Source: a virus. Taken from it: a stretch of DNA of 39,320 bases. The stretch spans positions 1 to 39,320 of IMG/VR virus record IMGVR_UViG_3300045988_148041. One strand, given 5' to 3'. The notes under the pieces are model-generated. The model was given only the letters and a program-made list of their open reading frames with translations. It had not been told where the DNA came from and made no database searches. Position 1 is the stretch's first letter; every line of letters begins with the position of its first letter. This document shows, piece by piece, positions 1 to 28,200 of this stretch. Made by a program: the position numbers and the translations under genes.

Positions 1-99
1 GTTTTTTTTGTTTTGCAAATCAATTTCTTTTGCTCGTTTTTCCCAATATACAGGGGAAGAAAGCTTCCCCCAATATTTCTCATCTTTAAGGTTGATAGA
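1..99. repeat. 99-bp terminal direct repeat, identical to 39222-39320. It is consistent with a circular-assembly k-mer overlap, so the window is a closed circle of about 39,221 bp.
   Basis: Exact identity of 1-99 with 39222-39320 read from the sequence. The head-morphogenesis ORF (38340-39239) continues across the junction. Confidence 0.9.
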
Positions 100-8944: not shown

Positions 8945-8953
8945 TCTCTCACC

Positions 8954-10485: not shown

Positions 10486-10520
10486 AATCACATTGTGTCC
10501 GAAGCAATGTGATTTTTTTT
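10486..10520 (+). terminator. plus-strand rho-independent terminator (orphan, may end a short antisense RNA)
   Basis: Perfect 10-bp stem AATCACATTG/CAATGTGATT, 9-nt loop, then T8 on the plus strand only. A TATAAT at 10451-10456 lies about 40 nt upstream. Confidence 0.5.
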
Positions 10521-10522
10521 AT

Positions 10523-11329
10523 TTACAAAATAACTTCATCTTTAAATCGATAATTCTTGCTACTGTCTTTTCCAACCTGGATGCAGTAACTTTTTGCTTT
10601 TTCTTTCATCCGCCCAGCAATCGCTTCATCAATATCTCGCAAATCATTTAGTAGCAATTCTGATGAGATAATTGTCACCGAGTTAGTGTTATAACGCTCG
10701 TTGATTAATTGAAATGCGATATTTACATCACTGTCCGTCACTTTACCTTTGAACAAATCGTCAATGTATAAGATTTCCGCTTTCGCATACTCATTAAAGA
10801 ATTCATCACGATCAAGGTCATATTTCATTCGTTTTAATCTATCCACGAACTCATTCCAAATCATGTATTTAACTTGACGATACTCCTTTAATCTTTGGTT
10901 ACAAATCGAAGCGCATACCATCGACTTACCAATACCGCTTTGTCCTAAAGCCATAAACCACTCTGTATCGGCTTTTAAGATGTAGTCCTTAACTTTATCC
11001 CTCATAGCAACTTGAAACGGCTCTACGGCCTTAAAATCGCGTAATTTGTAGGATAACAACTCACCCATTCCGCTTAATTCTGCATTTTTCATTGCTTTTC
11101 GTACTTTCATACACTCGCAATGGACGATATATGATGAATCTGTTTCTTTATGGTAGTGAGTAATAAACCCTCGATTTAAGCATTTATCGCATTCAAAGCC
11201 TTTTAGGCTTCCAGTTCGTTCATTGTCTAGCTCGACTAATAACTCTGTTGTCGATTTGTCTTTAGAATATGAGTAATCCAAATTCATCTCGCTTGTTGCC
11301 TTCTTCATCAACTCTGAAAGACTTTGCAT
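10523..11329 (-). CDS. DnaC/IstB-like AAA+ helicase loader with an N-terminal zinc finger
   Basis: Walker A GQSGIGKS, Walker B LYIDDL. N-terminal CDKC...HCEC. Confidence 0.65.
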   Translation of the reverse strand: MQSLSELMKKATSEMNLDYSYSKDKSTTELLVELDNERTGSLKGFECDKCLNRGFITHYHKETDSSYIVHCECMKVRKAMKNAELSGMGELLSYKLRDFKAVEPFQVAMRDKVKDYILKADTEWFMALGQSGIGKSMVCASICNQRLKEYRQVKYMIWNEFVDRLKRMKYDLDRDEFFNEYAKAEILYIDDLFKGKVTDSDVNIAFQLINERYNTNSVTIISSELLLNDLRDIDEAIAGRMKEKAKSYCIQVGKDSSKNYRFKDEVIL

Positions 11330-12059
11330 TTTGTTTCTCCCCCTTAACAGTCTTGTTATCTAACGGAAATATCCCTTTCCATCCGTAAATAATTGATTTT
11401 TCTAAAATTTGAATTTTTTCTAAATCGTTCGTTGCTATTTTGTCTAACTTGTTTACAATCAACTGAATAGCTTTTAACGTTGGATAAGGTTTTAGCGTCT
11501 TTCTCATTTCCAAAAAGTCATTGAGTGTGTTTAATAAATTTTCGTTAGTTGTATAAGAAGTAAATATGTTTTGGAAATCAACGTCAGTTGGTTTCTTTTT
11601 TATATTTTTTTCTTTTTTATTATTAAATTTATTATTAAATACTTTATTATTATCCTCCGTGATTTCGTGGATAGGGGTATCCATTATTTCGTGGATAGGT
11701 CTCCCGTTTTTGATGGATAGGTCTCCATTATTTTTTCCATACCCACCAGGCAAATATCGAGTCCCAAACGCACTCAGATAAATCCGTCTTTGCTGAATTT
11801 CTTTGCTATTTTCTTTGTAAATTAATTCAGTTTTGATGTAGTCTTTTTTCTCTAATGTCGAAACCCATTTGGAGATTGTCTTTTTATCGACACCGTATAA
11901 ATTAGAGAAATAACTATTCGAAGCCCAACAATAACCTCGTTCATTTGTCATGGCTGTTATTTCAGCAAATAGTAATTTAGCGTTAGGCGTTAACTCTTTG
12001 TCATATCTAACGTTGGCTGGAATAATTGCGAAAAAATTTTTTTGCTCTGCATCCATCAC
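11262..12059 (-). CDS. phage replisome organizer / DnaD-like replication initiation protein
   Basis: N-terminus NFFAIIPANVRYDKELTPNAKLLFAEITAM is the characteristic motif. A linker region contains internal iterons (see the repeat feature at 11661-11730). Confidence 0.75.
   Translation of the reverse strand: MMDAEQKNFFAIIPANVRYDKELTPNAKLLFAEITAMTNERGYCWASNSYFSNLYGVDKKTISKWVSTLEKKDYIKTELIYKENSKEIQQRRIYLSAFGTRYLPGGYGKNNGDLSIKNGRPIHEIMDTPIHEITEDNNKVFNNKFNNKKEKNIKKKPTDVDFQNIFTSYTTNENLLNTLNDFLEMRKTLKPYPTLKAIQLIVNKLDKIATNDLEKIQILEKSIIYGWKGIFPLDNKTVKGEKQNAKSFRVDEEGNKRDEFGLLIF
11661..11730. repeat. probable phage origin: three ~22-25-bp iterons inside the replisome-organizer gene
   Basis: Direct repeats gatttcgtggataggggtatccatta / tttcgtggataggtctcccgttttt / gatggataggtctccatta with core GTGGATAGG. 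They encode the PIHEIMDTPIHEIT repeat in the protein. Confidence 0.6.
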
Positions 12060-13363: not shown

Positions 13364-13720
13364 ATGATAAATAGAATCAAAAATTTGCGTAAAGAAAAAG
13401 GTTTATCACAACAAGAGTTTGGTTCTCGAATTGGCGTGTCCCGAAGTCACATAGCTGCATTTGAAAATGGGAACTCTGATATCAGTTCACGCGTGATCCG
13501 TGATATTGCTAATGTATACGAGGTCAACGAAGAATGGTTATTGACAGGTGAAGGGGAGAAATACAAGCCACGCACAGACGATGATGAGTTAGCAATCCTT
13601 ATCGGTAGTTTAATGGCTGAGGATGACGAATTTAAAAAAAGAGTCATCAAAGCAATGTTAAAGCTAGATGACTCAGAATGGCGTTTTGTAAAAAACATCG
13701 TTCAAAAAATTTGTGAATAA
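13364..13720 (+). CDS. XRE-family HTH repressor (CI-like)
   Basis: KEKGLSQQEFGSRIGVSRSHIAAFENGNSDIS is an HTH_3 motif. One of very few plus-strand genes. Divergent from the early operon. Confidence 0.7.
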   Translation: MINRIKNLRKEKGLSQQEFGSRIGVSRSHIAAFENGNSDISSRVIRDIANVYEVNEEWLLTGEGEKYKPRTDDDELAILIGSLMAEDDEFKKRVIKAMLKLDDSEWRFVKNIVQKICE

Positions 13721-13724
13721 ATAA

Positions 13725-13760
13725 AAAAAGCAGAGTAATTAAATACTCCGCTTTTTTTTG
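13725..13760. terminator. bidirectional intrinsic terminator
   Basis: AAAAAGCAGAGTA-ATTAAA-TACTCCGCTTTTTTTT. A-run on one side and T-run on the other, with one mismatch in the stem. Confidence 0.55.
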
Positions 13761-14075
13761 TTCATAACGTAACTCAAAATCATATTAGTGATAAAGTCGA
13801 TAAATTTATCATCGTTAACTTCGTCATTAATAAGTTCAAGTAGTTTCTCTTTCTTATTACTCATAACCCCAAATCATCCTTGCCCTTTTTTTATAATGTT
13901 ATTTTACAAACAATCGTTCGATACGTCTACCCATTTTGACAAAAAATAACATCATTCAACAAGTATTATAATCCTTTTTTTGATAATTTACAACGTATGA
14001 TAGTATATGCTTTTAAAAGTGGTAAATATGTATTATTATTACAATTTGTGCTAGTAATAACACTAGGAGGTAATA

Positions 14076-14398
14076 TGAATCAAATCAGTTATAAAATCAA
14101 AGCGTTGCGTGAGTTGAATAGTTTAAAACAATCAGACTTAGCAAGAGCTTTAAATGTTTCTCAACAGTTGGTATCGAATTGGGAAAGAGGCGTCCGACTT
14201 CCTGATTTGAATACTGTCAATCAAATGACTAAATATTTTAATGTGTCCTTTGATGATTTGTTGAGTAACAAACCAATCAAACCTGCTGTTATGAATGATT
14301 ACATTATTCAACACGAATTACTTCCTAAATTATCCGAAGAGGATAAAGATTTAATTTATCACATGATTACATTCATAGCGACACGGAAGAAGAGTTAA
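14076..14398 (+). CDS. second XRE-family HTH regulator
   Basis: RBS AGGAGG then ATG at 14076. LKQSDLARALNVSQQLVSNWERG is an HTH motif. The ORF-track start at 13997 is probably too far upstream. Confidence 0.6.
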
Positions 14399-14435: not shown

Positions 14436-14747
14436 TTAAAGGACTGTTATCTCTGTTATTTGTTCTAAGCCATCTTTGATATGCATTGTTTTTAAATCTA
14501 TGAGCTTTTTATTTAATAATTCAGACATTATTTTATCGATTTCTGTTTTTGGCTCGCTAAAACATTCGTATAAATGTTTATTCGTGATGATATCGTCATC
14601 CGCAAAAGTAAGCAGCGTTAAATACACCGCAATTTCCTCACATTTGAGACCTTGATTAAAAAACGTCCCATCCTTAACTAAAATATTGTTTTCAGTTGTC
14701 ATATGTTTTGATTTATTTATCACTTTAATTTTTGTGTTTTTAAACAT
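14436..14747 (-). CDS. hypothetical protein downstream of the iteron array
   Basis: 103-aa ORF. No recognisable motif. Confidence 0.4.
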   Translation of the reverse strand: MFKNTKIKVINKSKHMTTENNILVKDGTFFNQGLKCEEIAVYLTLLTFADDDIITNKHLYECFSEPKTEIDKIMSELLNKKLIDLKTMHIKDGLEQITEITVL

Positions 14748-14838
14748 TTCCAGTTCTCCTTTTTTTCGCGCGCGTGTAGTTAATAATATAAATAAATATA
14801 TTTAACAGCTTATTTATTTAACTACAATATATATTTTT

Positions 14839-14968
14839 GGGTAAACTTTTTAGTTTATAGGGGGTAAACTTTTTAGTTCAGTGGGTTAAACTCAAAAGTT
14901 TAGTGGGTATATACGGGGTTAAACTTTTTAGTTCAGTGGGGGGAGGGTTAAACTTTTTAGTTTAGTGG
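14839..14968. repeat. iteron array: five direct repeats of about 22 bp (plasmid-type origin or iterated protein-binding site)
   Basis: GGGTAAACTTTTTAGTTTATAG (14839), GGGGTAAACTTTTTAGTTCAGTGG (14861), GTTAAACTCAAAAGTTTAGTGGG (14885), GGGGTTAAACTTTTTAGTTCAGTGG (14915), GGGTTAAACTTTTTAGTTTAGTGG (14945). Spacing is 22, 24, 30 and 30 bp. Intergenic, flanked by AT-rich DNA. Confidence 0.7.
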
Positions 14969-14982
14969 GCTTCTCCACAAAA

Positions 14983-15342
14983 TTACTCGAAGTGTTTGCG
15001 GTCAAGCATATCGTACAATAGTGTTTTATAAGCAATCCCTGTTCTGTAGTATGTGAATGTCCCTTTACTATTTTTTTCAAGATGAAATTCTAACACTTTG
15101 CAGTCGCATAATTTTTTAAACCTTCTTCTCAAAGCTATTTTGTTATTTATTTTTAAAATAGGTAAGTCGTCTATGACTTTTTCGTAATTGACCCAATAAT
15201 AGACAGTGTCATTAAAAATTGCTTCTTGCATGCGATCTGTATTTCTAAAGTCAACGAACCAACGTAACAAAATAAGGTCATTCATATCCAACCCATAGGC
15301 TACAGCTATTTTTTGGTGATAATCTAAAATTGATAATTTCAT
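14983..15342 (-). CDS. small putative DNA-binding protein adjacent to the iterons (candidate iteron-binding initiator or regulator)
   Basis: Probable start MKLSILDYHQKIAVAYGLDMNDLILLRWFV after the RBS AGGAGGA. Basic C-terminal half. Function inferred from position only. Confidence 0.35.
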   Translation of the reverse strand: MKLSILDYHQKIAVAYGLDMNDLILLRWFVDFRNTDRMQEAIFNDTVYYWVNYEKVIDDLPILKINNKIALRRRFKKLCDCKVLEFHLEKNSKGTFTYYRTGIAYKTLLYDMLDRKHFE

Positions 15343-15380
15343 ATAAAAAAGTCCTCCTGGTGCTATAAATTTAGTAGCAA

Positions 15381-15563
15381 ACAAAAGGACTCCCACAAAA
15401 GTTTAACCAAAAATAGAATAAAAGGGTTGAAAATTGGTTAAAATGATATTATAATTACAAACGAACTTAATAAAAAGGTCATTAATTACGTTTGTAATTA
15501 ATTTATATTTTCTTTCGCTATTAGACTTCCACTCGGCTGCCAAACTTTGTGGGAGTCTTTTCA
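15381..15563. promoter_or_regulatory. regulatory region with nested inverted repeats
   Basis: AAAGGACTCCCACAAAAGTTT (15383-15403) is the near-reverse complement of AAACTTTGTGGGAGTCTTT (15543-15561). An inner 9-bp inverted repeat TTACAAACG...CGTTTGTAA (15448-15492) sits between them. Confidence 0.4.
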
Positions 15564-15611
15564 TTTACTAAAAAGAATGTTATCAAATATTGTCACAAAT
15601 TACAATAAAAA

Positions 15612-15646
15612 AAATAAGGGTTATCCACAACGGATACCCTTTTTAT
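15612..15646. terminator. bidirectional intrinsic terminator after the FtsK/Replic_Relax operon
   Basis: GGGTTATCC-ACAAC-GGATACCC followed by TTTTTATT. An A-run on the opposite side. Confidence 0.6.
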
Positions 15647-15675
15647 TATGTCCTTTTATTTACCACGTATACTGT

Positions 15676-16278
15676 TTATCTAATAAATGTATACTTCAAG
15701 TTAGAGAAGTTGCTCCAATCAGGTTTTATCCATATGCACCCGATATCAGGTTTTTTCTCGCACACCGATACCAAACACATCGGATGTTGCATTTTATATC
15801 GTCCTGCTTTCAAATCGTTATATAGACGATTATATGCATCTGTGTTAGTGAATGGCTTTGTTAAATCTATCTCAACGAGTGCGCAATAGGTTTCATCACC
15901 GTACTTAAAAGTTACCAACATATCGGGTCTGATATGGTATCTTTCCTCCAACTTCTTATACTCTACCTCGGTTTCATCTAGTATGATTTCGAAACCATCG
16001 ACTTTCATCCTGCTTAAAAAATCAGTCATCATCAATCTATGTTTAGTTTTGGTTGGATTTTTGCCGATGTAGTAAATATAAGATTGCCCCACGTACTCGC
16101 GCACTCTATGGACTTGTTTTTGGTGCTTGATGATCTCTTGCGTTCTCTTGTGCGCAACATTTAATGATGATTTCTCATTACGTGTCCAGTAAATCAATCG
16201 TGAAGCTATTTGTGCATTTAAGATAAAGTTTTTTTCCAAATATCTGATTAACTCTAAATCTCTAGTTGTTAACCCCAT
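15676..16278 (-). CDS. Replic_Relax (replication-relaxation) family protein
   Basis: N-terminal winged helix LTTRDLELIRYLEKNFILNAQIASRLIYW...SLNVAHKRTQEII. C-terminal nuclease-like RPDMLVTF..CALVEIDLTK. Overlaps the upstream FtsK-like gene by 17 nt. Confidence 0.6.
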   Translation of the reverse strand: MGLTTRDLELIRYLEKNFILNAQIASRLIYWTRNEKSSLNVAHKRTQEIIKHQKQVHRVREYVGQSYIYYIGKNPTKTKHRLMMTDFLSRMKVDGFEIILDETEVEYKKLEERYHIRPDMLVTFKYGDETYCALVEIDLTKPFTNTDAYNRLYNDLKAGRYKMQHPMCLVSVCEKKPDIGCIWIKPDWSNFSNLKYTFIR

Positions 16279-17467
16279 AAATTAACACTTCCCCTTTTAA
16301 ATTGCTCATTTTCGGCTCATTTTTAGGCTTTTCGACTTCGGTAGTAGTTTTAACAACAGATGGTTTTTTCGAGGTTCTAACGGTCTTTAAATGGTCTTTA
16401 ATGATGTTTTCAACGTCATCGTCAGATGTTATTAGCGTTTGCCCTTCTTGAATTTGCCCACCTAGACTAAATAATGCCCGTCCTTTAGCTGCTAATTTTT
16501 CTGCTCCCGGTTGGTCTAGTATCACGCTAGAGTTAACAGAATCGACTGTGTGAAAACAAATTCTATTATCGATGTTAGCTTTAATTCGTGAGTCGATGAT
16601 TTTAGAGTCAAAGCGTTGGCTTGTGAAGATATAGAACACTCCAACAGCGCGACTAATGGCTAGCGACTTAATAAGTGTCGTTTTCAAATCTTTGCTTTGA
16701 TCAATCAAAATTGTGAACTCTTCTATGATGACGAATTTCGGTTTTATTTTTTTATCATTATTTTTATTATGATCCAACCAATTTTTGGAGTCTGAGTCGT
16801 TGATTATATTCAATCTATCCTCTATCTCAGTGTAAATTCTATTAATCTCCGTCTCTGCCTTATCAGGTGCAATAGTGAATGAATTGGTTTGTCTAATTCT
16901 TTTGAATGAATTTAATTCAACCCCACCTTTGAAATCGAATAATTCAAATTCACTTTCAGGATAGTTGATTAATATTTGTAAAATTAAACTGGTCAGAAAT
17001 ACCGATTTCCCCCATCCTGTCGCTCCCGCAATTAGAGTGTGGGGCATCGAAACGAAATCAAGTGTAATCCCTTTAAAATCGCCATTCTCTACGCCTATTG
17101 CGGCTGCTACTTGCATCCCAGGTCTATCATTTGTAATGACTTTATCAAAAGGTATGCTCGAAGGTAGTTTTTTTGTTTCTTCTTTTAATTTTATAAAGTA
17201 ATTAAAATTATTATTGATGATCTCAACTTCACTTTTAACGATATTTTCAATTTTCCCTTTTAAATCTTGTAGGTCTTTGAAACTCTTACCGTTGTTTAAT
17301 CCTATTCCGTATGTTTTCGTTTTTCTGTCGTGAAATTTGATGTAACCTATCCCCTCTAGTAGTTGACTCAACGGTGATGACATATCTTTAATCCCTCCAC
17401 CTAATTCCGATAATTTTAAAGCTCCTAACATAACCGTACCAATCGCCCAAGGCATCCACCATACCAT
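16262..17467 (-). CDS. FtsK/SpoIIIE-family membrane-anchored DNA translocase-like ATPase (TcpA/TraB-like)
   Basis: N-terminal TM helix WWMPWAIGTVMLGALKL. Walker A GATGWGKSVFLTSLI. Walker B KFVIIEEF. RBS GGAGG 7 nt before the ATG. Confidence 0.75.
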   Translation of the reverse strand: MVWWMPWAIGTVMLGALKLSELGGGIKDMSSPLSQLLEGIGYIKFHDRKTKTYGIGLNNGKSFKDLQDLKGKIENIVKSEVEIINNNFNYFIKLKEETKKLPSSIPFDKVITNDRPGMQVAAAIGVENGDFKGITLDFVSMPHTLIAGATGWGKSVFLTSLILQILINYPESEFELFDFKGGVELNSFKRIRQTNSFTIAPDKAETEINRIYTEIEDRLNIINDSDSKNWLDHNKNNDKKIKPKFVIIEEFTILIDQSKDLKTTLIKSLAISRAVGVFYIFTSQRFDSKIIDSRIKANIDNRICFHTVDSVNSSVILDQPGAEKLAAKGRALFSLGGQIQEGQTLITSDDDVENIIKDHLKTVRTSKKPSVVKTTTEVEKPKNEPKMSNLKGEVLIYGVNN

Positions 17468-17558
17468 AACAAAACCTCCAAATGTTTAATTATTAGTAAG
17501 TAATTGGTCATTGGAGGTATTTTTATGTAATTTTGTTTTGCGTGTATAACCAAATATT

Positions 17559-17640
17559 GGAGCGCGAACGGAATTACTTTTTCTCCGTCCCCCCGGAACG
17601 CTCGTTCCCACTCGCTCCCCCCTTTTAATGCGCTTCGCTT
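17559..17640. other. GC-rich, C/G-tract island in an AT-rich intergenic region (possible structured RNA or operator)
   Basis: GGAGCGCGAACGG...TCCGTCCCCCCGGAACGCTCGTTCCCACTCGCTCCCCCC. Inverted repeat GGAACG-CT-CGTTCC. Outer GGAGCG/CGCTCC. Two C6 tracts, which are G6 on the minus strand. Confidence 0.3.
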
Positions 17641-17768
17641 TTTGTGGCATTATCAAGGTTTTTGGCTATTGGTTTCGTGGTTTATCGCTTATACTCAACT
17701 TACTGCTGACCAATACTTAACTTATAGTAGATTATATGAAGTTTGGTGTAAGTTAGTACCAAGAGTTT

Positions 17769-18311
17769 TCAATTTCTCGAATTAATTTTTTGGAGTAGTT
17801 GTGATCCGTCTACTAGCTGCACTTTGCTGAGCCTTGCTTCTTGCCTAGCGTCTTCTGTGAACTTAGATGTAGTGACAAAAATCGCTTCGGCGTTGTGAGG
17901 ATGACACGCACCAACTAACTTTTGAACCAAAGGTCTCCCGACAGCATTAGATTGGGCGAATTGTTTGCATTCTACAAAGTAAGTTTTAGTCCCTTTGTAC
18001 ATCACAAGATCTTTACCACCATCACCACTTTTGCGTGTCTGAAGCACGGTGTACCCTTGCGATTTATAGTAATCAGCTACCACACGCTCGAATTGATAGG
18101 GATTGACCTTCATTAAATCGTTCATCGTCATTCTTGAATATGGTTTTTTGAATATATTTTTAAAATCCTCGCCTGATAGATGAATTGCCACTGTCGCTAT
18201 CGCGATGATCAGGAACATCATAATAACAGTAGGATTGAGTATTTTCCCGAAGGTTATGATCGTAAATAAAATTAAAATTGCTTTGACTGTTTTTTTGCTC
18301 ATCAGCATCAC
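17769..18311 (-). CDS. membrane-anchored Mrr-type (PD-(D/E)xK) restriction-endonuclease-domain protein
   Basis: Two N-terminal TM helices (ILILFTIITFG, IMMFLIIAIATVAI). Mrr_cat-like core NPYQFERVVADYYKSQGYTV...GDGGKDLVMY...YFVECKQF. Confidence 0.6.
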   Translation of the reverse strand: MMLMSKKTVKAILILFTIITFGKILNPTVIMMFLIIAIATVAIHLSGEDFKNIFKKPYSRMTMNDLMKVNPYQFERVVADYYKSQGYTVLQTRKSGDGGKDLVMYKGTKTYFVECKQFAQSNAVGRPLVQKLVGACHPHNAEAIFVTTSKFTEDARQEARLSKVQLVDGSQLLQKINSRN

Positions 18312-18375
18312 CTATCGTTAGGATCGCCAAAAAAAGAGCGGATTATACACAATAGAATCCTGTTTTTAGATGCAA

Positions 18376-18404
18376 ATAAAAAAAGACTTGGAATAACCAA
18401 GTCT
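18376..18404 (-). terminator. intrinsic terminator of the parMR operon
   Basis: On the minus strand: AGACTTGG-TTATT-CCAAGTCT followed by TTTTTTT. Confidence 0.7.
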
Positions 18405-18618
18405 ACCAGTCTTTTTCTTTAAATAGATCCTTTGTTTCTTGTGGCACATTGAATGCGTCCTCTTTGATGTTGCCACTTACTTTATCAGCTAACGTTGTTA
18501 AAATAAAAGAAGTAAAGTTGCGTTTGTCAGCTTTAGCTGCTTCCTCGATAGCTTGTAACAACGCTTCGTCACCTTCATAAAAAGTGATCGTCTTTTTAGC
18601 AATTATTTTACGCGCCAT
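18403..18618 (-). CDS. parR: ParR-like ribbon-helix-helix partition adaptor
   Basis: 71 aa. Beta-strand KTITFYEGDEAL then helices LQAIEEAAKADKRNFTSFILTTLADKV. Lies immediately downstream of parM. Confidence 0.5.
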   Translation of the reverse strand: MARKIIAKKTITFYEGDEALLQAIEEAAKADKRNFTSFILTTLADKVSGNIKEDAFNVPQETKDLFKEKDW

Positions 18619-18622
18619 ATTA

Positions 18623-19585
18623 TTACCCCTTTTTGATCAATGTGTATTTATAGAATCCTCTTGCATTCGCGATTTGTGCTTCGGGATAAACTATCGCATT
18701 TGAACGTAATTTTATGTGATTTTTAATAGCCAAAGCTCCACCACCAGTATAGATAATTCTGTCATAGTGTGCTAAATTAATCCCACTTCGTCTGATAACA
18801 GTTTCTAAGGCTGATACGAAGTCTGTTTTAACTAAATCTAATTCTTCGGTGAAATCAAATGTTTCGCCGTATTTATGAATAATTGGCGAGATATCATCGC
18901 TCACATCGTTATGTGTAAAATGATAATCAGTCCCTTTGTATTTGTTGTTCATTTCACGAACTAAATCATTTACGATATCCATACAACCAGTGTCGTCACC
19001 TGCTAATTTCTCGACTTGCAACCCATTTGTGGCAAGTATATCCGTAGTTGAGTAACCAATATCAATCACAACGTAATTGAATTTGTTACGGTTGTTAACG
19101 ATTTGCAGTTTTTCATTGAAAACGAAGTCACATAGAGTCCCTAACGGCTCACACGCAACGAAAACATCTTGGATATTGATGACATATTCCTCAACAACAT
19201 CGTCAATTATAACGTTTATTGCATGGCGGCCAGTCAATTTTTTAACAATCTGTTTCTTTAGGTCGATTTTTTCAAAGTCCCTGCAAGGAACTCCAATAGT
19301 TAATGATACATTGCGCTCAGTGATGACCTGAGTAATCGCGATTAATAATTCTAAAAGATATTCTTTGCTTAAATAACGGTCAGAGCTACGTCCACCACTA
19401 CTGATCCCCGTTGTATCTAAAGTATATTGTTTCCCTTCATATTCATAGATTGTCCCAATACCACCTACGATATTAAATTCGCTTCCTGTCAAACGTTTTA
19501 ATTTGTTAGGGTATGTCAACTCTGTGTCATTGGATACAACTTTAATGAAGCCGTTTGCAACCTCTAGTCCTATTTTTTGACTCAT
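18623..19585 (-). CDS. parM: ParM/StbA-family actin-like segregation ATPase
   Basis: Phosphate-1 motif IGLEVANGFIKVV. Phosphate-2 motif VVIDIGYSTTDILA. Adenosine motif YTGGGALAI. Confidence 0.7.
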   Translation of the reverse strand: MSQKIGLEVANGFIKVVSNDTELTYPNKLKRLTGSEFNIVGGIGTIYEYEGKQYTLDTTGISSGGRSSDRYLSKEYLLELLIAITQVITERNVSLTIGVPCRDFEKIDLKKQIVKKLTGRHAINVIIDDVVEEYVINIQDVFVACEPLGTLCDFVFNEKLQIVNNRNKFNYVVIDIGYSTTDILATNGLQVEKLAGDDTGCMDIVNDLVREMNNKYKGTDYHFTHNDVSDDISPIIHKYGETFDFTEELDLVKTDFVSALETVIRRSGINLAHYDRIIYTGGGALAIKNHIKLRSNAIVYPEAQIANARGFYKYTLIKKG

Positions 19586-19589
19586 TTTC

Positions 19590-19860
19590 GATTCCTCCTT
19601 AAACTCTTTCTAGTACATATTATGTTGCTATTTTAAAAAAATCAACCACTTTCTGTTTTTTTCTTGATAAAAACTTCTATTTTCAGTTTATATAAGAAAA
19701 AATAAGTCAATAACTAGATTATATACTTATGAAAAATAGTTATTATACGTATATAAAAAGGTTTTAACTATAAAAAATAAGAAAAAAACTTCTAAAAGAA
19801 GGTATCTTATGGTTATCCTCTGCATATAATGTACTAAGAAGCAAATGAAAGGGGAAATGC
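19590..19860. promoter_or_regulatory. AT-rich divergent control region (candidate parC centromere plus promoters)
   Basis: Reiterated TATATA(A/C) and AAAAATA(A/G)G words. TGcATATAAT at 19821-19830 precedes the plus-strand operon. Confidence 0.3.
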
Positions 19861-19863
19861 GGA

Positions 19864-20109
19864 ATGAAAAAAGATTTCTTAGATTGTAAAACGGTTAAAG
19901 AATGTGTTGAGTGGTATTTAGTAGAAACAGAAGGAAAAGAAAGAGATGTAGAGTTTGATCTAGGATTTATATCATCGTTGTTCGATAATCACTACTGGGA
20001 GCTAGTGGATGAAGCAGAAGAGTTGAAACTTGAAGCAGAACGTAAAAGCCGAATCGCAGAATGTTTGAAAGATAGTCAAGTGTTAGAAGATATCGTGGAG
20101 TGGGCTTAG
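19864..20109 (+). CDS. small acidic hypothetical protein
   Basis: 81 aa, rich in D/E. Confidence 0.45.
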   Translation: MKKDFLDCKTVKECVEWYLVETEGKERDVEFDLGFISSLFDNHYWELVDEAEELKLEAERKSRIAECLKDSQVLEDIVEWA

Positions 20110-20143
20110 GCTCACTCTTCACTTAAAATTGGAGGGATTAGTT

Positions 20144-20506
20144 TTGCGTTTAGATATTTGTAACGAAACAATCACGTGGAGTCGTTTAAATCAATATCCT
20201 AGAGTTTTTGAAACGTTTATGCACGACGTTATGTTAGACTTGACTGGCTGTAATGGGTTCGAGTTTTTAATAAATAATGGGGTTTACACCCTAGATGAAC
20301 CCTATTTAATTGAAAAAGAATTTATGGAAAGTTGGGTGAATGTAGCAAAAGATGTTCCAAACAAATTTTATTTGCACAAATTATGTTTAAATATATCCAA
20401 AAAATTAGTTTATGCGAAGTGTACTTATACCGACAAAGTCTTTTACGTCAAGTATGAAGTTGATATCCCCGGCGAAGATGTTGCAAGTGACGATCATATG
20501 CATTGA
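20144..20506 (+). CDS. hypothetical protein
   Basis: The RBS GGAGGG favours a TTG start at 20144 over the ORF-track start at 20129. Confidence 0.4.
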   Translation: MRLDICNETITWSRLNQYPRVFETFMHDVMLDLTGCNGFEFLINNGVYTLDEPYLIEKEFMESWVNVAKDVPNKFYLHKLCLNISKKLVYAKCTYTDKVFYVKYEVDIPGEDVASDDHMH

Positions 20507-20615
20507 TTAAAAGAATAAATTTAAAAGAAAGTTTTCGAAAATACTTGTAATTCATTCGCGAATGAGTTATATTATAAGTGTAACAGGGAATAACAAATCG
20601 AAGGGATGATAAAAT

Positions 20616-20816
20616 ATGAATAAATTTGAATTAGCGTGTGAATTAAGAGGAAAATACGATTTAGAAGAATTGCAACAAATGAAACTAGTTGCTACACCTG
20701 GTGAAGATATGGAACAAGAAGAAATTGAATCAGTGTGGGAATCAGGCGACGCTCACTACTTATTATTGGTTGACGAAGAAGATTGTAAATCAATTTACGA
20801 TAAATATTTAGCTTAA
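20616..20816 (+). CDS. small acidic hypothetical protein
   Basis: 66 aa (EDMEQEEIESVWESGD...). RBS AAGGGATGATAAAATATG. Confidence 0.45.
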   Translation: MNKFELACELRGKYDLEELQQMKLVATPGEDMEQEEIESVWESGDAHYLLLVDEEDCKSIYDKYLA

Positions 20817-20830
20817 TAGGAGGAATTGCC

Positions 20831-21304
20831 ATGATTAAAACTAAAGAATGGTTAATTGAGTCTCGCCAAAAGGCTGGGATTACCCAACAGCAACTTGCGG
20901 AACGTAGTGGAGTTTCGGTTCATGCTATCAGAAATATCGAGCAAGGAACTAGAGAAGGCTCTTCCGAGACATGGAAGGCGCTAATAACTGCATTAGAGAA
21001 TAGAACGTACACATTAGTTGAAGTGATAGAGGAACTAAAGGGTTACAAAATAGAGTATCAAACTATATACGGAATTATAGGTGGGTTAAAATATGATGAT
21101 TTTTCGCGTTTACACGATGATTTTTTCGCGGTAACAATCTTTAGAAATGATGACAATTTACAATTTTACGTTAACTTAAATAAAGAATTAATGTTCATAA
21201 AAAAATCTGATGTTAATTACAAGGAGTTCACATCATTCAATAATAAAGAGATAATCACGTTTTGCGATTCAGATGCAAGAACTGCTCATAGTTTAAAAAA
21301 ATAG
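20831..21304 (+). CDS. XRE-family HTH regulator with a C-terminal domain
   Basis: AGITQQQLAERSGVSVHAIRNIEQG is an HTH motif. Confidence 0.55.
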   Translation: MIKTKEWLIESRQKAGITQQQLAERSGVSVHAIRNIEQGTREGSSETWKALITALENRTYTLVEVIEELKGYKIEYQTIYGIIGGLKYDDFSRLHDDFFAVTIFRNDDNLQFYVNLNKELMFIKKSDVNYKEFTSFNNKEIITFCDSDARTAHSLKK

Positions 21305-21368: not shown

Positions 21369-22121
21369 TTAGCTATGAAATTTTTTGGTTTCTGATGAAT
21401 ATAAGATAGGATTTTTCGTTAAACCACAAGAATATACTTTATTGCATAATATTGATAAATAATCATCCACTGAACGTTGTCGTGTTATATTAGGTAAAAA
21501 TTGTTTAATTTTACGTTCCATTTGTGAATGATCGTATCCCTCTTTAAAGAATAATCTTGAAAAAGCCGTGATAAAATGGCTTTGCTTGTAGTTTCTAAAT
21601 TCATGGAACGATTCGAGGGCCATAAAAAATAATACCACAGAATCTAATCCATCTAACGACACTGCGCCTGTTCTAAATTCTCGTTTCAGTTGCGGTATAT
21701 TTTTTTCTTGAACGACAGATAATATCTTTAGAAAATCATTAATACTTATATCGAAATCGTTTGTGATTTCTGCTATTTTTAGATACTTCTCTTCTTTTAA
21801 TTCGCAATAGCGGTGAAGATAATCTGCATCATACCAACGTCTTCCACCATTAACATTAGCTCTTATTACGTCATCAATGCTATATCCATTCTCCATAATA
21901 TAATAGACGGGTAATTTCAAATATTCACACGCCTTAAATCTATGTTGACCATCGATAATTTCAAATTTTTCATTTACTGTAATTGGAATGATTAACTGTT
22001 TCTCCTTCATACTCTCAATTATTTGATTAAGATTCGTTGGATTTGTTCTTCTGTTTCCGCCCATGATTTTAAACAATGAGTAGTCGTTTGTTTTCATTAC
22101 ACTTGTGTAAACTTCAATCAT
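21369..22121 (-). CDS. ParB/Sulfiredoxin-like nuclease-domain protein with a DGQHR motif (DndB-like)
   Basis: EIIDGQHRFKACEYLKLPVYYIM. Confidence 0.55.
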   Translation of the reverse strand: MIEVYTSVMKTNDYSLFKIMGGNRRTNPTNLNQIIESMKEKQLIIPITVNEKFEIIDGQHRFKACEYLKLPVYYIMENGYSIDDVIRANVNGGRRWYDADYLHRYCELKEEKYLKIAEITNDFDISINDFLKILSVVQEKNIPQLKREFRTGAVSLDGLDSVVLFFMALESFHEFRNYKQSHFITAFSRLFFKEGYDHSQMERKIKQFLPNITRQRSVDDYLSILCNKVYSCGLTKNPILYSSETKKFHS

Positions 22122-22650
22122 ATTTGTACCCTCCTGTAATATACCACTTTCTATAATCTTTTCTTTTACAATCCTTGCATTGATTCAAGTGACCGTCTTT
22201 CATGCCTTTGTTTTTGTTAAATTCGGACAGCGGTTTAGTTTCTCCACATTTGTTGCATTTTTTTGTTGCTTCTGAAATGGTTGCTTCTGAAATGGTTGCT
22301 TCTGAAATGGTTGCTTCTGAAATGGTTGCTTTCCTTTGGTTATAAGCATCTTTATACTTTTTTGCGCAAAACCTACAATAAGATTTAACGCCACTTTTGC
22401 TTTTTTTGTGTTTATTAAAGTAACTTAAAGGCAAGATTGTTTCGCATTGCGAACAAGTCTTGTAACCAGCAGGAGCTACGTCGTTGATTATCGGCCTTTT
22501 TAAGTTCAATTCACTTGCTTTAGTGTAGATCGATTTAATATCTCTTTCTAAAGCGTTCGATATTTCTTTTGTTGTGAACTCTGAACTTTTATATGCATAA
22601 CGCAAAAAAACAATCTCTTCTTCAGTCCATAATTTTCGCTTTTTTTCCAT
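22114..22650 (-). CDS. zinc-ribbon repeat protein with an ATISE pentapeptide tandem repeat
   Basis: Two CxxC-x(20-25)-CxxC modules (CSQCETILPLSYFNKHKKSKSGVKSYCRFC and CNKCGETKPLSEFNKNKGMKDGHLNQCKDC). N-terminal HTH-like WTEEEIVFL. The ATISE repeat is encoded by a 15-bp tandem repeat. Confidence 0.5.
   Translation of the reverse strand: MEKKRKLWTEEEIVFLRYAYKSSEFTTKEISNALERDIKSIYTKASELNLKRPIINDVAPAGYKTCSQCETILPLSYFNKHKKSKSGVKSYCRFCAKKYKDAYNQRKATISEATISEATISEATISEATKKCNKCGETKPLSEFNKNKGMKDGHLNQCKDCKRKDYRKWYITGGYKYD
22265..22330. repeat. 15-bp tandem repeat (GTTGCTTCTGAAATG), 4.4 copies, inside the CDS
   Basis: Read directly from the sequence. Confidence 0.9.
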
Positions 22651-23083: not shown

Positions 23084-23113
23084 ATAAAAAAAGAGGCAAG
23101 CATAAGCTCGCCT
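23084..23113 (-). terminator. terminator of the lysis cassette
   Basis: On the minus strand: AGGCGAGC-TTAT-GCTTGCCT (one G-U pair) then CTTTTTTT. Confidence 0.6.
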
Positions 23114-23688
23114 TACTCAAAAATTTTATAGTTAATATCTAGTGATAATACCGTGTTATAGTAGCTTGACACGACATACTGAAGATCAGGGCTAGACTTT
23201 TTACACCAAAGCACGTGCGTTGGGTTTAAAGTGCTATCTATACCAGCTTTTAACACCGCATTTGATTTGCTCGTTTGTGGCGTGTAATTAGGGTATTCGA
23301 TATCTGTATCGCACTCAATATGTAAATGTGCTCCTGATGATGCACCTGTATTTCCATAGTAGCCGATACGCGTGTCTTTCGTCACGTTCTGTCCTTGTTT
23401 AACTCGAATTTTATCTAAATGGTAATAACGCATAGCAATGTCTTTAATTGCACCAGTTGGAAGCTCACAATCTTTATACACGATAACGACTACATTACCA
23501 CCTGAAGGATGCCAACCACAATGAGTCACTATTCCGTGTCCACTAGCCCAAATAGTTGTGTCTTTGCGTTTTTCATCCGTACAATCAACTCCGTAATGAG
23601 TATAGCCAAATTCTCTTTTATAAGCTGAGTTCTTGTATCCTGCCGTAACACGCATTGAATTGATAGGTAAAATTAAACGTTGTGACAT
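23113..23688 (-). CDS. M23-family peptidase (endolysin, catalytic domain only)
   Basis: HYGVDCT...GIVTH...GNTGASSGAHLHIECD, with the HxH and HxxxD zinc motifs. Confidence 0.65.
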   Translation of the reverse strand: MSQRLILPINSMRVTAGYKNSAYKREFGYTHYGVDCTDEKRKDTTIWASGHGIVTHCGWHPSGGNVVVIVYKDCELPTGAIKDIAMRYYHLDKIRVKQGQNVTKDTRIGYYGNTGASSGAHLHIECDTDIEYPNYTPQTSKSNAVLKAGIDSTLNPTHVLWCKKSSPDLQYVVSSYYNTVLSLDINYKIFE

Positions 23689-23690
23689 TA

Positions 23691-24068
23691 TTATTCCCCC
23701 TTTGTTTTTTGATTAAAAATTTCTAGCTTTTCAGCCACAATAATAGGCAACTCAACCCCACACTCATGTAAATTTTCTAAGATTGAACCGCCCTCTTTAT
23801 AGATAAATAAAGCCAACGTGAAACCACAGAGCATGTAATTAAGCCCTAATACCACATCAACACCGATAACAAACACGACAGCTACCATTTCTGCAATCCA
23901 ACGCACGATGCCGTCACGCATTTTAGAGCTTTTGTAATTTTGGTTTTTCCACGACTTAAGGATGCCTAATAGCATATCAATGACTTTAATACCTAAATAT
24001 GCGACAACTAATGTCGAAATACTTTGTGGTAATATTGCTAAAATTCCGTATTGTAACATTTTTTTCAC
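23691..24068 (-). CDS. holin (multi-TM, Holin_4_1/TcdE-like)
   Basis: 125 aa with 3-4 hydrophobic helices. Sits immediately upstream of the endolysin. Confidence 0.6.
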   Translation of the reverse strand: MKKMLQYGILAILPQSISTLVVAYLGIKVIDMLLGILKSWKNQNYKSSKMRDGIVRWIAEMVAVVFVIGVDVVLGLNYMLCGFTLALFIYKEGGSILENLHECGVELPIIVAEKLEIFNQKTKGE

Positions 24069-24129: not shown

Positions 24130-25143
24130 TTAAGCTACATTTAGAAATGCTTCAATTAAATCATCAGCATCGCGATCATCATACAACGACACCATGTCTA
24201 ATGACTCCCAATTCACAATCGCTTTGATTAATTCAGGCGGATATCCTGCGCGACCTAACTCTGTACAGAAATTATGGCGTAGACAATGGAAATAAAAACT
24301 CACGTCAAACCAATTTCCAAACGTAACCGCCCACGATTTCAAAGTTTGGGTTTTCAACGGAACCCACTCTTCCGTTTTTTTATCATATTTAACAAATAAA
24401 TGCTGGATTTTATCGGGCACACCTAATCGCTTACGTTCTTCTAACCATAAGTTCAAATAAGGCTCAAATTTATCGATTAAAACGTATCTAGGTATTTGTT
24501 TACCCAACTTTCCTCTGCCCTTTGTACGGAGCTTTTCAGGCGTTTTCCAAAATTTATTCCACTTAACGCAATCGTCTGTGAAATAATTGCACTTGAATTG
24601 GACCAATTCCGATACTCGGCTACCACTAGCCCAGGCTAGAGCGAAAGCACACGCTTTTTGGTATTGTTTTTTCTCTACTAAGTGATCTAAGAATTTTTGG
24701 CACTGCTCATCTGAAAGAACTGTTTTTTCTCGCACATTTTCTCTAGCAGGAGCTTCGATTTTTAAAATAATATTTCTGAAACCTTTCCACTTAGGTTCTT
24801 CATCTAAAAAGTTTTCAATGTATTTACTTAAGCTAGATAACGATGATCTAACGCGTTTAATTCGCGCCGGAGATAACCCTTCACTTAACATATAGCCTTG
24901 GAAATTCAAGTAATCATTTTTCTTAACCTCGCAAAAGTCTTTATTTTGGCACTTATCACGGAACCAACTAAAGAAGATATATAAATCACTTCGATAATTT
25001 GTGACCGTTACAGGGCTTCTATCGACTCCTGTGCAATACATTAAGAAACTGTCAACCAACTGTAAATTTTCAGGATTAATCGTGCTAATGTCCGAACTCG
25101 CTAGCACACGCTTTGTTTTTCTAGTATTTTTTCTTTTACCCAT
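24130..25143 (-). CDS. tyrosine site-specific recombinase (Xer/Cre-like integrase or resolvase)
   Basis: SAM-like N-domain. Catalytic residues present: SGSRVSEL (R), HCLRHNF (H-x-x-R), and the nucleophile in ...MVSLYDD. No extended arm-binding N-terminus. RBS GGAGGG. Confidence 0.8.
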   Translation of the reverse strand: MGKRKNTRKTKRVLASSDISTINPENLQLVDSFLMYCTGVDRSPVTVTNYRSDLYIFFSWFRDKCQNKDFCEVKKNDYLNFQGYMLSEGLSPARIKRVRSSLSSLSKYIENFLDEEPKWKGFRNIILKIEAPARENVREKTVLSDEQCQKFLDHLVEKKQYQKACAFALAWASGSRVSELVQFKCNYFTDDCVKWNKFWKTPEKLRTKGRGKLGKQIPRYVLIDKFEPYLNLWLEERKRLGVPDKIQHLFVKYDKKTEEWVPLKTQTLKSWAVTFGNWFDVSFYFHCLRHNFCTELGRAGYPPELIKAIVNWESLDMVSLYDDRDADDLIEAFLNVA

Positions 25144-25155: not shown

Positions 25156-25197
25156 CCGTACAACGTACTATAGTAAATACTATGATTTGTTGTACGG
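25156..25197. other. nested palindrome next to the recombinase start: candidate recombination core (att, lox or dif-like) or operator
   Basis: CCGTACAAC-[GTACTATAGTAAATACTATGATTT]-GTTGTACGG. 9-bp perfect arms. The inner TACTATAGTA is a 10-bp palindrome. Direct repeat of TACTAT. Confidence 0.45.
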
Positions 25198-25231: not shown

Positions 25232-28200
25232 TTATTCTACTAATTCGCGAGCATCCATTAATGAGATTAATTCGTCATACTCTTCTTGCGTTAATTGCCC
25301 TGCTTCTAAATAACGTTTTAATTGGTATTCCATTTTTGAACGCTCATAACGCCCACCTAAGATTAATGTTTTTGCTTGTAAAAATCTACTCATAACATCA
25401 GCCTCCTTTAATTTGAATGTAGCCATCATAGGCACATCTAAAACCATTTCAATTTCAAACAATCTAAAGTCAATATCCCATTGATTAGATAATAAATCCA
25501 TGTCACCATCCACACGGTATTGATTTGCTTCAATTAACCCATCTTTTAATGCTTCATTTTCAGATTCTAACGCTTGGATCGTGTTGCGTTGCTGTGCGAT
25601 CGTTGCTTGCACGTCAGTTGGTACTTTAACGGATAGCGTTGGGACTAATGAACCTTCTTCACTACTACATGAGTAATGAGTTGTACCGTCGTATGAATAA
25701 ACAACGTTGTCGCTTAAATCAACTGTTTTATTGACTTCTTGTTCAAGAACGTATCTTACTGTAATCGGATTTTCGGAAAAATACGCCTTTAATTGAGAAA
25801 CATCCATCTGAACTTTATCATTAGAAATAAAAATGACAACATCATTTGTGGAAACATATAAATGTTCTGCATCAAGCGTATAGTTTGCTATTGATTGGAT
25901 TTTATCACATATAGCATTAGAATTGCCTTTTCCTCTGTAAGGAAGGGGTATATAATATCGTGATGTATTTCCCAAGTTTTCACTATATACAATATTTTGA
26001 CTACCATCAATAACAAATTCATGTGTAATTTGTTTCACATTCTTATTAATAATATCTAACGTGTCATATATATTTCCAACACTACCTAAAACTAATTCAC
26101 TTGGAGTAGATAAAATGTTTGATTTAAAGCTCTCGAATGAGGTGGCAACTGGACTTTCTTCGAGTTGTGCGACTTCTAAATCTAAATAAGCACCCCTATT
26201 AAAATTGTACGAACCACTAATATAATCAATCGTTTTATCTTTTTCAGATGTTATAGTAAATAAACTTCCTTGCTCTACGTTATTCGCAGTTCTTGTTCCA
26301 TCAGTATAATAAAAATTAAAATTAACTTTCATAGAATTGTTTTCATCATCACGATAAATTTTCCCTGTAAAGGTGTATCGAGTATTTTCTTTAAACTTAC
26401 TGTGATATTTGAAATTAGTCCCACCATCAGTATAACGGTAAACAGATTTACCATTAAAAGTTGCAAATTCACCACCACTTAATTTTGTTTTATCAAACAA
26501 ATTCTTCCCAGTAGTCGTTAAAACAGGCATTCTAACGCTCTGCATACCCTCAAAATAAGGAATGTCCCAATTTTCCATACCTTCTTGATATTGTAATATC
26601 GTTACTGCCCTACTTAAATCGTCCTCACTTGTCCAACCATCACTAAATTTACATAAAAACTGATAGAAGAATCTATTATCTTCAAGTTCAACTTTAAGAT
26701 AACTATCACCTTCTAAATAAAGAATGTCCGCGTAAATAGTTGGTTCTATTTGGTAAACACCTATCGTAATCCTGTGTGGTGTATTGTTTTTAATGAAATA
26801 GATACCTTCAGAATACAATGAACTAACTGTATTATTAGCCCATATTTTTTCATCATCAACTTCTTGTCCTCTTATTTTATAGTGATTCACTAACGTATTA
26901 CCCTTTAAAATCGCACTTTTAGTGTGCCCCTCAATGGAATTGTTAGCTGTGATGTGTTGACCTTCGTAATCTAAGTAATTAAATTCACCGATAGCCGTTT
27001 TTACAGCATAATCAACATTAGCATTAGCCGCTTGGCGCATATTCTCATGAGTATTCCCCATGTAGTCTATACGCATATCTGCAACCTCTTCCGCGCTACC
27101 TTCTAAAATTTCTAACGCTGCATCTGTGCGTTTTTCGATATCTGAGACTACCTGTTCACCACGAGTTAGGAATTCTTCAGTTCGTTGCTCAATCTCGATA
27201 ACCGTTTGTTCTCCGCGTGTTAGAAACTCTTCTACTTTAGCATCGCGTGTTGCTTCTTTTTGCACGCGTAATTCTTCATTGGCAATGCGTGTATTTTCAT
27301 TTGTGATACGCTTTGACTCGTTATCTTTTCTTAATTCCTCGTTTTGATTGCGAGTTAATTCTGCTTGGTTATATGCTGTGTAACGTTCTTTTTCAGCCGT
27401 TGCATATGTTTCTTGACGAATTGTTTCAGCATCGCCAAAATCTGCATTTCGTTGAGTTTCACAATCTTCATATAACTTGTTGCGATTAGCTTCTGCTTTG
27501 GTATAGCTTTGATCGCGTAATAACTCAGCGTTAACGCGTTGCTGTTCTGCTACTTGACGTGCATCTTCAGCTTTTTGGCGTTCTTTTTCTTTTTCATTAA
27601 AACGAGTATATGTAGCTTCACGGTTATCTTCCTGAGCTTGGCGATTAGCTTCTGCATTGATACGATTTTCTTCGTTATTCACGCGTTCTAATTCCTGAAT
27701 TAAGCGATTATTTTCAGATGCTAAACGAATAATTTCATTTTTCTCAAACTCACCGAATTTATTAATACGTGCATTTTCATTAGCTACGCGTTTATTTTCT
27801 TGTAAGTTGCGCACACCTTCATTTGCTTCAAACGTTTCATTGCGGTTTTGTTCTGCTAAGATGCGCGAATTTTCATTTGAAATGCGTGTTTGCTCTGCGA
27901 TTTTGCGGTTTGTCTCATTGACCATGCGAGTTTCTTCATTCGCTTGGCGTTCTTCTTCCGATGGAACCGCAGTCTCGTATAATGCGATGCGCATTTCTTC
28001 ATTAACTTGGCGGATCGCTTCGGCATTTGCACGCGCCGTTTCTTTAGTGACACGAACTAATTCGTCCTGTTTGCGTTTCGCTTCCTCAATTTTAATATCC
28101 TCGTTTGTCGCGACTACTTCGGTATTGATTTGTTCTATTTGTTGCTCATAGTCTCTTAAGTTAGCAACCACCACATCTAAATCATCTAATGTGTCAATTT

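Follow-up and report, generated by a model that had tools for sequence, protein, structure and literature searches.

The 39,320-base virus contig analysed here in full (IMG/VR record IMGVR_UViG_3300045988_148041; hereafter the window; 36.5% G+C) carries on its minus strand, at 18375-19863, two genes and an upstream region that together resemble a type II, actin-based DNA partition system. In the order of transcription, two clusters of TAGAAG-type words and a weak candidate promoter are followed by a gene for a ParM-like ATPase, here called the actin-like protein (ALP), a gene for a small adaptor and a terminator (Table 1). A first-pass annotation of the sequence had described a type II ParM/ParR partition cassette at 18403-19863, and all the features that it placed there were found.

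The ALP protein matched the Pfam families ALP_N (5.8e-11) and MreB-like_C (1e-7), both beyond their cut-offs, and PHROG 691, 'partition protein' (6e-44); it is also 100% identical to a deposited 'MAG TPA: ParM-like protein [Caudoviricetes sp.]'. When 17 ALP homologues (41-81% identity) were aligned, four motifs of the actin fold were invariant, namely phosphate-1 (G6-L7-[E/D]8-x-A10-N11-G12-x-I14-K15), connect-1 (E146-P147-x-G149), phosphate-2 (D175-x-G177-x-x-T180-T181-D182) and adenosine (T280-G281-G282-G283), which bears out the earlier call of an actin-fold ATPase with phosphate-1, phosphate-2 and adenosine motifs. The profile of this alignment, compared with solved structures, matched ParM of plasmid pSK41 (7.9e-15) and Alp12 (4.4e-12). 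An AlphaFold model of ALP (predicted local distance difference test score, pLDDT, 85.8) gave the same best match in Foldseek, pSK41 ParM (E 4.4e-22; template modelling score, TM, 0.75), and the 28 best PDB matches were all ParM/Alp-type actins of plasmid, chromosomal or archaeal origin, with Alp12, Ta0583, Dh-cParM1, pCBH ParM, Alp7A, BtParM, CorM, R1 ParM and AlfA following pSK41 ParM. Domain matches, motifs and model thus all identify the actin-fold ATPase of a type II partition system. Because ALP reached 69.5 bits against the 417-bit cut-off of the NCBIfam ParM equivalog NF010498, we regard it as a ParM-like protein and, on this score, not as an orthologue of R1 ParM.

The small adaptor gene that characterises type II systems was found directly downstream of the ALP gene. 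Its open reading frame (ORF) begins 4 nt past the parM stop, and a hairpin with a T-run comes after it, so that ALP and adaptor form a closed two-gene operon. The order of ALP and then adaptor was kept in every relative and in three unrelated cassette types. Among 11 homologues, the N-terminal 47 residues of the adaptor were nearly invariant, and the variable tail ended in a conserved Trp. The strongest family matches of the adaptor, Pfam TacA1 (0.0064) and NCBIfam YlcI/YnfO (0.0017), were weak and lay below the cut-offs. Its model (pLDDT 69) has helices at 18-30 and 35-48, the positions of those in a ribbon-helix-helix (RHH) protein, after an extended N-terminus, and the top Foldseek matches were RHH proteins (AmrZ, Arc, CdbA, AtaR and CopG), every one with an E value of at least 1. 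A search of PDB sequences with the adaptor profile gave no significant match, nor was the hhalign comparison with CopG significant. Of the 71-aa RHH adaptor that had been annotated, the ORF itself therefore stands, 4 nt behind the ATPase gene, and the RHH call is weak: an RHH fold is plausible but not proven from the model and these sub-threshold matches.

The region upstream of the ALP gene (19586-19863) has 24.1% G+C, compared with 36.5% for the window. The exact word TAGAAGTTTT occurs twice in the 39 kb, at 19670-19679 and at 19785-19794, both times on the gene strand and 115 bp apart, and each copy opens a short run of degenerate ~10-bp units. The distal cluster includes a palindrome, CTTCT-N3-AGAAG (19789-19801), which takes in part of the distal TAGAAGTTTT copy, and the proximal cluster adjoins the -35 hexamer of the candidate promoter. 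In the related loci L007, L008 and L010 (loci compared with the window carry L numbers), whose ALP proteins are ~71% identical to that of the window, both cluster positions hold TAGAAGTTTT-type arrays with exact 10-bp phasing, and the proximal array adjoins a conserved TTGATT. The 10-bp-phased array of L007 has 8 copies, a number equalled in 0 of 500 shuffles; its proximal cluster consists of four exact 10-bp-phased units, and that of L001 of three to four. It is this comparison with relatives that supports the upstream repeats strongly, and the window alone is weak in this respect. The first-pass annotation had proposed the AT-rich region with its reiterated words as a possible parC centromere; the low G+C content and the arrays in relatives agree with that proposal, and the longest repeat of the window taken alone lies within chance.

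Between the proximal cluster and the ALP gene, a ribosome-binding site (AAGGAGG) lies directly upstream of the parM ATG, and the TTGA of the -35 hexamer was invariant in a 5-sequence alignment. On the plus strand, TGCATATAAT at 19821-19830 was invariant in all aligned relatives and probably forms the -10 element of a promoter that drives the divergent small genes at 19864-21304. As the par repeats and this divergent promoter share one intergenic region, adaptor binding, if any, could affect transcription in both directions.

Taken together, these features make it very probable that 18375-19863 is an ALP-adaptor-centromere cassette. In the mechanism that we propose, adaptor dimers would coat the repeated words on every copy of the phage genome, and the adaptor-DNA complex would cap and stabilise ATP-bound ParM-like filaments; filaments growing between two copies would push these apart, and both daughter cells would inherit the prophage. 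Adaptor binding beside the -35 hexamer would probably repress the operon as well.

The proposed maintenance block and the phage genome

The genes next to the cassette suggest what it would serve. The iteron locus that had been annotated was recovered beside a small Rep-like gene, and homologues of the 137-aa Rep-like protein carry Pfam HTH_36. Different iterons accompany the other alleles of this gene. A second array, four 22-nt copies at 11652-11741, lies inside the O/DnaD-like initiator gene; the Rep-like gene with its iterons is separate from the lytic-type O/DnaC-type module, and the two arrays suggest distinct plasmid-type and lytic-type origins. The gap between the par operon and the Rep-like gene is filled by a co-oriented block (15676..18311) that encodes a 200-aa protein, an FtsK/SpoIIIE-like ATPase and an Mrr_cat nuclease-domain protein, the last two with hydrophobic N-termini resembling membrane anchors. 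This accessory block is conserved beside ALP genes in L001, L002, L004 and L017-L026, and its ATPase and nuclease-domain proteins accompany the ALP cassette in several elements that are unrelated to one another. In L001 and L002, the ALP-adaptor-FtsK-200aa-Mrr block belongs to phages with other virion modules, and in L004 it lies beside RepA_N and resolvase genes on a contig on which no phage structural genes were seen. It is speculation that the FtsK/SpoIIIE-like and Mrr_cat proteins move the episome, for example into the forespore of a spore-forming host. A reading of the block as a defence system was rejected, since PADLOC matched the Mrr-like and FtsK-like proteins at domain level only and did not match the par genes.

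In the proposed scheme, the cassette would be part of a plasmid-maintenance block at 14.4-19.9 kb of the window, together with the small Rep-like protein and its own iterons, and this block would let a temperate siphovirus be kept as a circular plasmid of low copy number, without integration. The main rival to partition is a role like that of AlpAC, in which ALP and adaptor would move or anchor replicating phage DNA after induction or infection, for replication and packaging. The adaptor of prophage CGP3 attaches to sites that precede its own operon and links the phage DNA to AlpC filaments, which efficient replication requires (PMC4446434), an architecture that is the same as in the window, and ALP genes were also found in Bacillus phage G and on L009, a phage-like contig of 105.9 kb. 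However, the cassette lies between the lysis genes and the repressors, beside a Rep-like gene with iterons and outside the early lytic operon, which is located at 12672 and below; in L004, this block has RepA_N and resolvase genes as its neighbours; and the element was never seen joined to host DNA. We consider such a role in place of partition unlikely, and the two roles, which are compatible, are not mutually exclusive.

Judging from its gene content, the window is a complete temperate siphovirus of ~39.2-39.3 kb. The PHROG and Pfam scans found complete sets of virion, packaging, lysis and immunity genes, as is asked of a phage-plasmid. The ends of the contig overlap exactly over 99 nt, the usual mark of a circular assembly, in agreement with the first-pass annotation, and the contig is cut between the portal gene and the head gene that follows it. 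The 90%-identity clusters around seven window proteins include members named from Turicibacter sanguinis, and on this basis we take that species as the host. Because the T. sanguinis entries lack the 'MAG' tag (for metagenome-assembled genome) that other Turicibacter sp. entries carry, they were taken as isolate assemblies.

Searched by megablast against phage and plasmid collections, the cassette and the left 13.8 kb returned no related record. At 5104-5188, between HNH and regulator genes, ~80 nt are 84-87% identical to 14 Staphylococcus epidermidis siphophages; no other stretch of the left 13.8 kb matched a deposited phage at the DNA level, and the match is an unrelated one. A perfect 15-nt tandem repeat of 4.5 copies, GTTGCTTCTGAAATG, was seen at 22265-22331 within an HNH/endonuclease VII-like gene (22114-22650).

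Table 1. Features of the window, with the proposed cassette first, its neighbours next and the remaining phage genes last
Feature	Position	Strand	Basis or detail
Distal word cluster, centromere/operator-like	19760..19801	-	TAGAAGTTTT at 19785-19794, then degenerate ~10-bp units
Proximal word cluster	19647..19681	-	TAGAAGTTTT at 19670-19679, then ATCAAG and ACAGAAAG units
Candidate parM promoter	19617..19645	-	-35 TTGATT 19640-19645, 17-nt spacer, -10 TAATAT 19617-19622
parM-like gene, actin-like ATPase (ALP), 320 aa	18623..19585	-	Pfam, PHROG, motifs, model
parR-like adaptor gene, 71 aa	18403..18618	-	ORF; weak RHH matches
Intrinsic-terminator-like hairpin and T-run	18375..18404	-	stem 18404-18384, 8 pairs, then TTTTTTATTT
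Mrr_cat nuclease-domain protein, membrane-anchored (predicted)	17769-18311	-	
FtsK/SpoIIIE-like ATPase, membrane-anchored (predicted)	16262-17467	-	
200-aa protein	15676-16278	-	
Plasmid-type replicon candidate	14838..15415	-	iterons and Rep-like gene
One inverted iteron copy	15397-15415		repeat search
Rep-like winged-helix gene, 137 aa	14983-15396	-	phrog_428, replication initiation, 4.3e-7
Five ~23-nt iterons (GGGTTAAACTTTTTAGTTYAGTGGG)	14838-14969	-	repeat search
Tyrosine recombinase (Xer/Cre-like)	24130..25143	-	phrog_1 4e-31; Phage_integrase
Terminal direct repeat, 99 nt, exact	1..99 = 39222-39320	n/a	sequence comparison
Portal	109-1422		PHROG/Pfam scans
Large and small terminase (TerL, TerS)	1498-3178		PHROG/Pfam scans
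Early genes: SSB, RusA, Erf, DnaC-like loader, O/DnaD-like initiator	7271-12059	-	PHROG/Pfam
Two cI-like repressors (immunity)	13364-14398	+	PHROG/Pfam
Holin and M23 endolysin	23113-24068		PHROG/Pfam
Tail fibre	25232-28576		PHROG/Pfam
Tape measure	31188-33092		PHROG/Pfam

Free circles, host flanks and the tyrosine recombinase

Contigs that carry the same phage genes bear on whether the element is a free replicon. The exact repressor of the window was found in 88 collection blocks, in which the longest contig measured 20-50 kb in 22 of 88 and exceeded 50 kb in none, and an adaptor homologue in 59 blocks, again with no contig above 50 kb (0/59). The clusters of the seven phage proteins had longest contigs of 38.5-39.9 kb, several of them named from T. 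sanguinis. Two T. sanguinis assemblies (GCA_028325385.1 and GCA_015668915.1) hold one 39,736-bp contig each, and these are 100% identical over the 14.7 kb compared. The repressor lies at ~22.9 kb in one and at ~4.3 kb in the other; one stops between the adaptor and the Mrr gene, and the other continues through that point. The same sequence with shifted starts indicates that the two contigs are circular permutations. Elsewhere, break points fell in the endolysin gene, upstream of ALP, or between the portal and the next head gene. No recognisable host gene or host flank was seen on any locus examined. A scan of GTDB genomes returned only a 2-kb contig of a metagenome-assembled genome and a distant match, with no integrated copy and no host flank, and a scan of metagenomes yielded no further contig longer than 46 kb. 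From an integrated prophage, one would expect some chromosome-joined contigs, or ends at one fixed att site. These results, indirect but consistent, support the phage-plasmid reading of the first-pass annotation.

The position of the tyrosine recombinase gene was also examined. As had been noted earlier for a Cre/Xer-like recombinase placed away from the repressor, the gene is ~10 kb from the repressors; within the late operon, it is separated by 88 nt from the tail fibre gene on one side and by 61 nt from the holin gene on the other. In close relatives the gene occupies this tail fibre/holin site too, a 61% identical homologue stands between TerL and portal in L037-L039, and ~50% identical homologues occur among the structural genes of SPbeta-like phage contigs of 120-154 kb (L027, L029). 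This placement is unlike that of the usual int-attP unit beside the immunity region, and by position the gene resembles a mobile gene, or one that acts late, more than it does a classical integrase. As a candidate multimer resolvase, the recombinase would, in the proposed scheme, resolve multimers of the episome. In the 88-nt gap just upstream of the gene, a perfect 9-bp inverted repeat, CCGTACAAC-N24-GTTGTACGG, occupies 25156-25197; it is possibly a recombination site or a transcription signal. No counterpart of this repeat was recognised beside the recombinase homologue in L038/L039, and comparison of the recombinase flanks in the window, L038/L039 and L027 revealed no common recombination site.

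We consider it most likely that the element persists as a plasmid, and we put the probability that 18375-19863 is a self-contained type II (actin-type) segregation cassette which partitions an episomal prophage at about 0.7. The points that count against this reading concern both the state of the prophage and the cassette. The tyrosine recombinase that is present could still be an integrase, headful packaging, to which the SPP1-type portal and terminase genes point, yields circular assemblies as well, and an induced integrated prophage could likewise appear as a separate free contig. For the cassette, the RHH fold of the adaptor is without statistical support, given the sub-cut-off matches, Foldseek E values of at least 1 and the comparison with CopG. 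The repeats are degenerate in the window alone (two exact 10-mers and about four degenerate units), and its longest repeat is within chance, since 123 of 1000 shuffles contained an 11-nt repeat. On the gene strand upstream there are 4 copies of the word [TC]A[GT]AAG, a count equalled in 1 of 500 shuffles, and this word was picked after the relatives had been inspected. The parM promoter falls under the 9/12 threshold of the consensus scan and is a candidate only, and phage actin systems can serve lytic replication, as AlpAC of CGP3 does (PMC4446434).

The first of these points belong to a second alternative, that of an ordinary integrating prophage, in which the recombinase would be the integrase, the circles would be excised or virion DNA, and the par cassette would be dispensable cargo or of transient use. 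A gene of the Phage_integrase family is indeed present, NCBI names its T. sanguinis homologue 'site-specific integrase', and headful-type packaging genes predict circular assemblies from virions. Yet the recombinase gene is squeezed into the late operon, is not beside the repressors and has another slot in relatives. The tRNA and Rfam scans of the window were empty, with no tRNA, no tRNA fragment and no clue to a tRNA-type attP. None of the 88 and none of the 59 blocks exceeded 50 kb or showed a host flank, the T. sanguinis entries without the MAG tag included, and contig break points vary between assemblies, with no shared att-like end. We therefore regard integration as improbable, and as somewhat less probable than a role of the AlpAC type.

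Exchange of par and rep cassettes among related phages

The exact 118-aa repressor of the window is present on many contigs, and L040-L049 were compared with window positions 14436-19863. In those of these backbones that were compared for them, the replication-initiator and helicase-loader proteins are 99-100% identical to those of the window. Such near-identical backbones carry four different ALP and adaptor pairs, of 320+71 aa (the window), 308+91, 306+88 and 324+101 aa. The ALP proteins of the 308+91 and 306+88 pairs are 56% identical, and all other pairings reach at most ~24%. All four ALP types match ALP_N, and two of the other adaptors match RHH_4 weakly. The repeats upstream of the operon differ as well: one of the other cassette types has a palindromic CCGTTAAAA-N11-TTTTAACGG in three copies at 63-64 bp spacing, another has a 39-nt unit with AACGAC-type sites, present three times at a spacing of 63 bp, and a fourth such site that was recognised by eye, and another has two upstream copies of AATTGTATGACAATT. 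An upstream repeat that varies with the adaptor fits the prediction for a centromere/operator recognised by that adaptor.

The small Rep-like gene also differs in allele among these backbones, independently of the ALP and adaptor pair, and each allele comes with iterons of its own. In L041, the iterons of the window are combined with a different ALP cassette, which indicates that par and rep units assort independently. In some backbones, the FtsK/200-aa/Mrr block is replaced by a 769-aa AAA ATPase and two small genes. A much larger phage-like contig, L009 (IMG/VR, 105,860 bp, positions 2600-8100), has an ALP (73% identical), a Rep-like gene (72% identical) with iterons unlike those of the window, and an adaptor of 95 aa; the FtsK block is absent, and the contig encodes an antirepressor, a guanylate kinase, a cytosine methylase and an RNA ligase. 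L009 may be another phage-plasmid that uses the same cassette family.

The exchange of cassettes also bears on a third alternative, a ParMR pair repurposed for a cytoskeletal or host-manipulating role apart from DNA segregation, like the chromosomal CorMR. Some chromosomal ParM relatives do have other roles, and CorM and Dh-cParM1 are among the PDB matches of ALP. However, the cassette of the window is a mobile two-gene unit with adaptor-specific repeats directly upstream, and it is swapped as a unit among phage backbones; a cassette that is swapped together with its own repeats is as expected of a cis-acting DNA-handling system. Such a repurposed role is thus very improbable, and we retain partition of an episomal prophage as the preferred explanation.

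These comparisons tentatively suggest, in a reading that we ourselves doubt in its full extent, a widespread Turicibacter phage-plasmid family that swaps whole par and rep cassettes at fixed loci and keeps its repressor, a kind of incompatibility-group shuffling, in which the FtsK/SpoIIIE-like and Mrr-like proteins might aid delivery to the forespore. T. sanguinis is a gut commensal linked to host serotonin and lipid metabolism (PMC13492147), and a literature search found no description of a phage-plasmid for this species or its genus. If the prophage is a plasmid, metagenomic 'viral' contigs of this family would also be stable host replicons, the par and rep cassettes would be ready-made parts for Turicibacter genetic tools, and cassette swapping would be a clean natural experiment on adaptor/centromere specificity and on the evolution of incompatibility.

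Comparison with known systems

Among solved structures, the closest to ALP is ParM of the pSK41 ParMRC system of Staphylococcus aureus, at only 20% identity. ParR of pSK41 belongs to the RHH proteins and binds to a tandem array of repeats upstream of parM. The pSK41 system is carried by a conjugative plasmid, unlike the cassette of the window, which is carried by a phage. With ParMRC of plasmid R1 from Escherichia coli, the archetype of type II, the window shares the order of centromere (a candidate one in the window), ATPase and adaptor, the presence of two clusters of ~10-11-bp iterons or iteron-like words, and the actin fold of ParM (Foldseek E about 1e-14). In R1 the iteron clusters flank the promoter; unlike this arrangement, both word clusters of the window lie upstream of the promoter.

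By architecture, the cassette can also be likened to AlpAC of CGP3, which comprises a phage-encoded actin-like protein and a co-transcribed adaptor that binds upstream sites of its own operon (PMC4446434). In contrast to the proposed state of the window, CGP3 is integrated in Corynebacterium glutamicum, and AlpAC serves replication after induction (PMC4446434). Judged by the name of the operon, the adaptor gene comes first in AlpAC.

The best match of ALP in a cultured phage was Paenibacillus phage API480/SV21 (28% identity over 99%), in which an 80-aa gene then follows. A sequence closely related to API480, with the same gene order, appears in the databases in two guises, as a phage and as a circular P. 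larvae plasmid of 46 kb (NZ_CP019718). Unlike the window, API480 has MazEF beside its ALP and is without the FtsK/Mrr block, and its vB_PlaP name implies a podovirus virion module.

The temperate siphoviruses vB_BtS_B83 (B83) and IEBH, both of Bacillota, have circular plasmid prophages, a state that was shown experimentally (PMC6669507, PMC8026635, PMC11526630). According to the same papers, the ParM-like gene of B83 and IEBH has an RHH adaptor gene directly behind it, and Bp8p-C pairs a ParM-like gene with a helix-turn-helix (HTH) adaptor; B83 further has upstream iterons, a RepA-like initiator and two Xer recombinases, one of which (ORF2) is listed with the small terminase gene on one side and the large one on the other; an FtsK/SpoIIIE and replication-relaxation operon is present in RBClin15; and some 'plasmids' of the B. 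cereus group are really phages (PMC6669507, PMC8026635, PMC11526630). The window resembles B83 and IEBH in its ParM-like gene with a small adaptor, its iteron-like upstream repeats, its Xer-type recombinase and a candidate initiator set apart from the lytic genes. It differs from them in that its host, Turicibacter, belongs to a different order and its plasmid state is deduced from assemblies, and from B83 in having one recombinase instead of two. In a tblastn search of 50,697 phage records with ALP, no Bacillus phage of the B83/IEBH type was listed at E <= 1e-5. The design is thus already known from Bacillus phages and the conceptual gain is moderate; the added interest lies in the exchange of complete par and rep cassettes between near-identical backbones and in a recombinase gene that shifts within the late operon.

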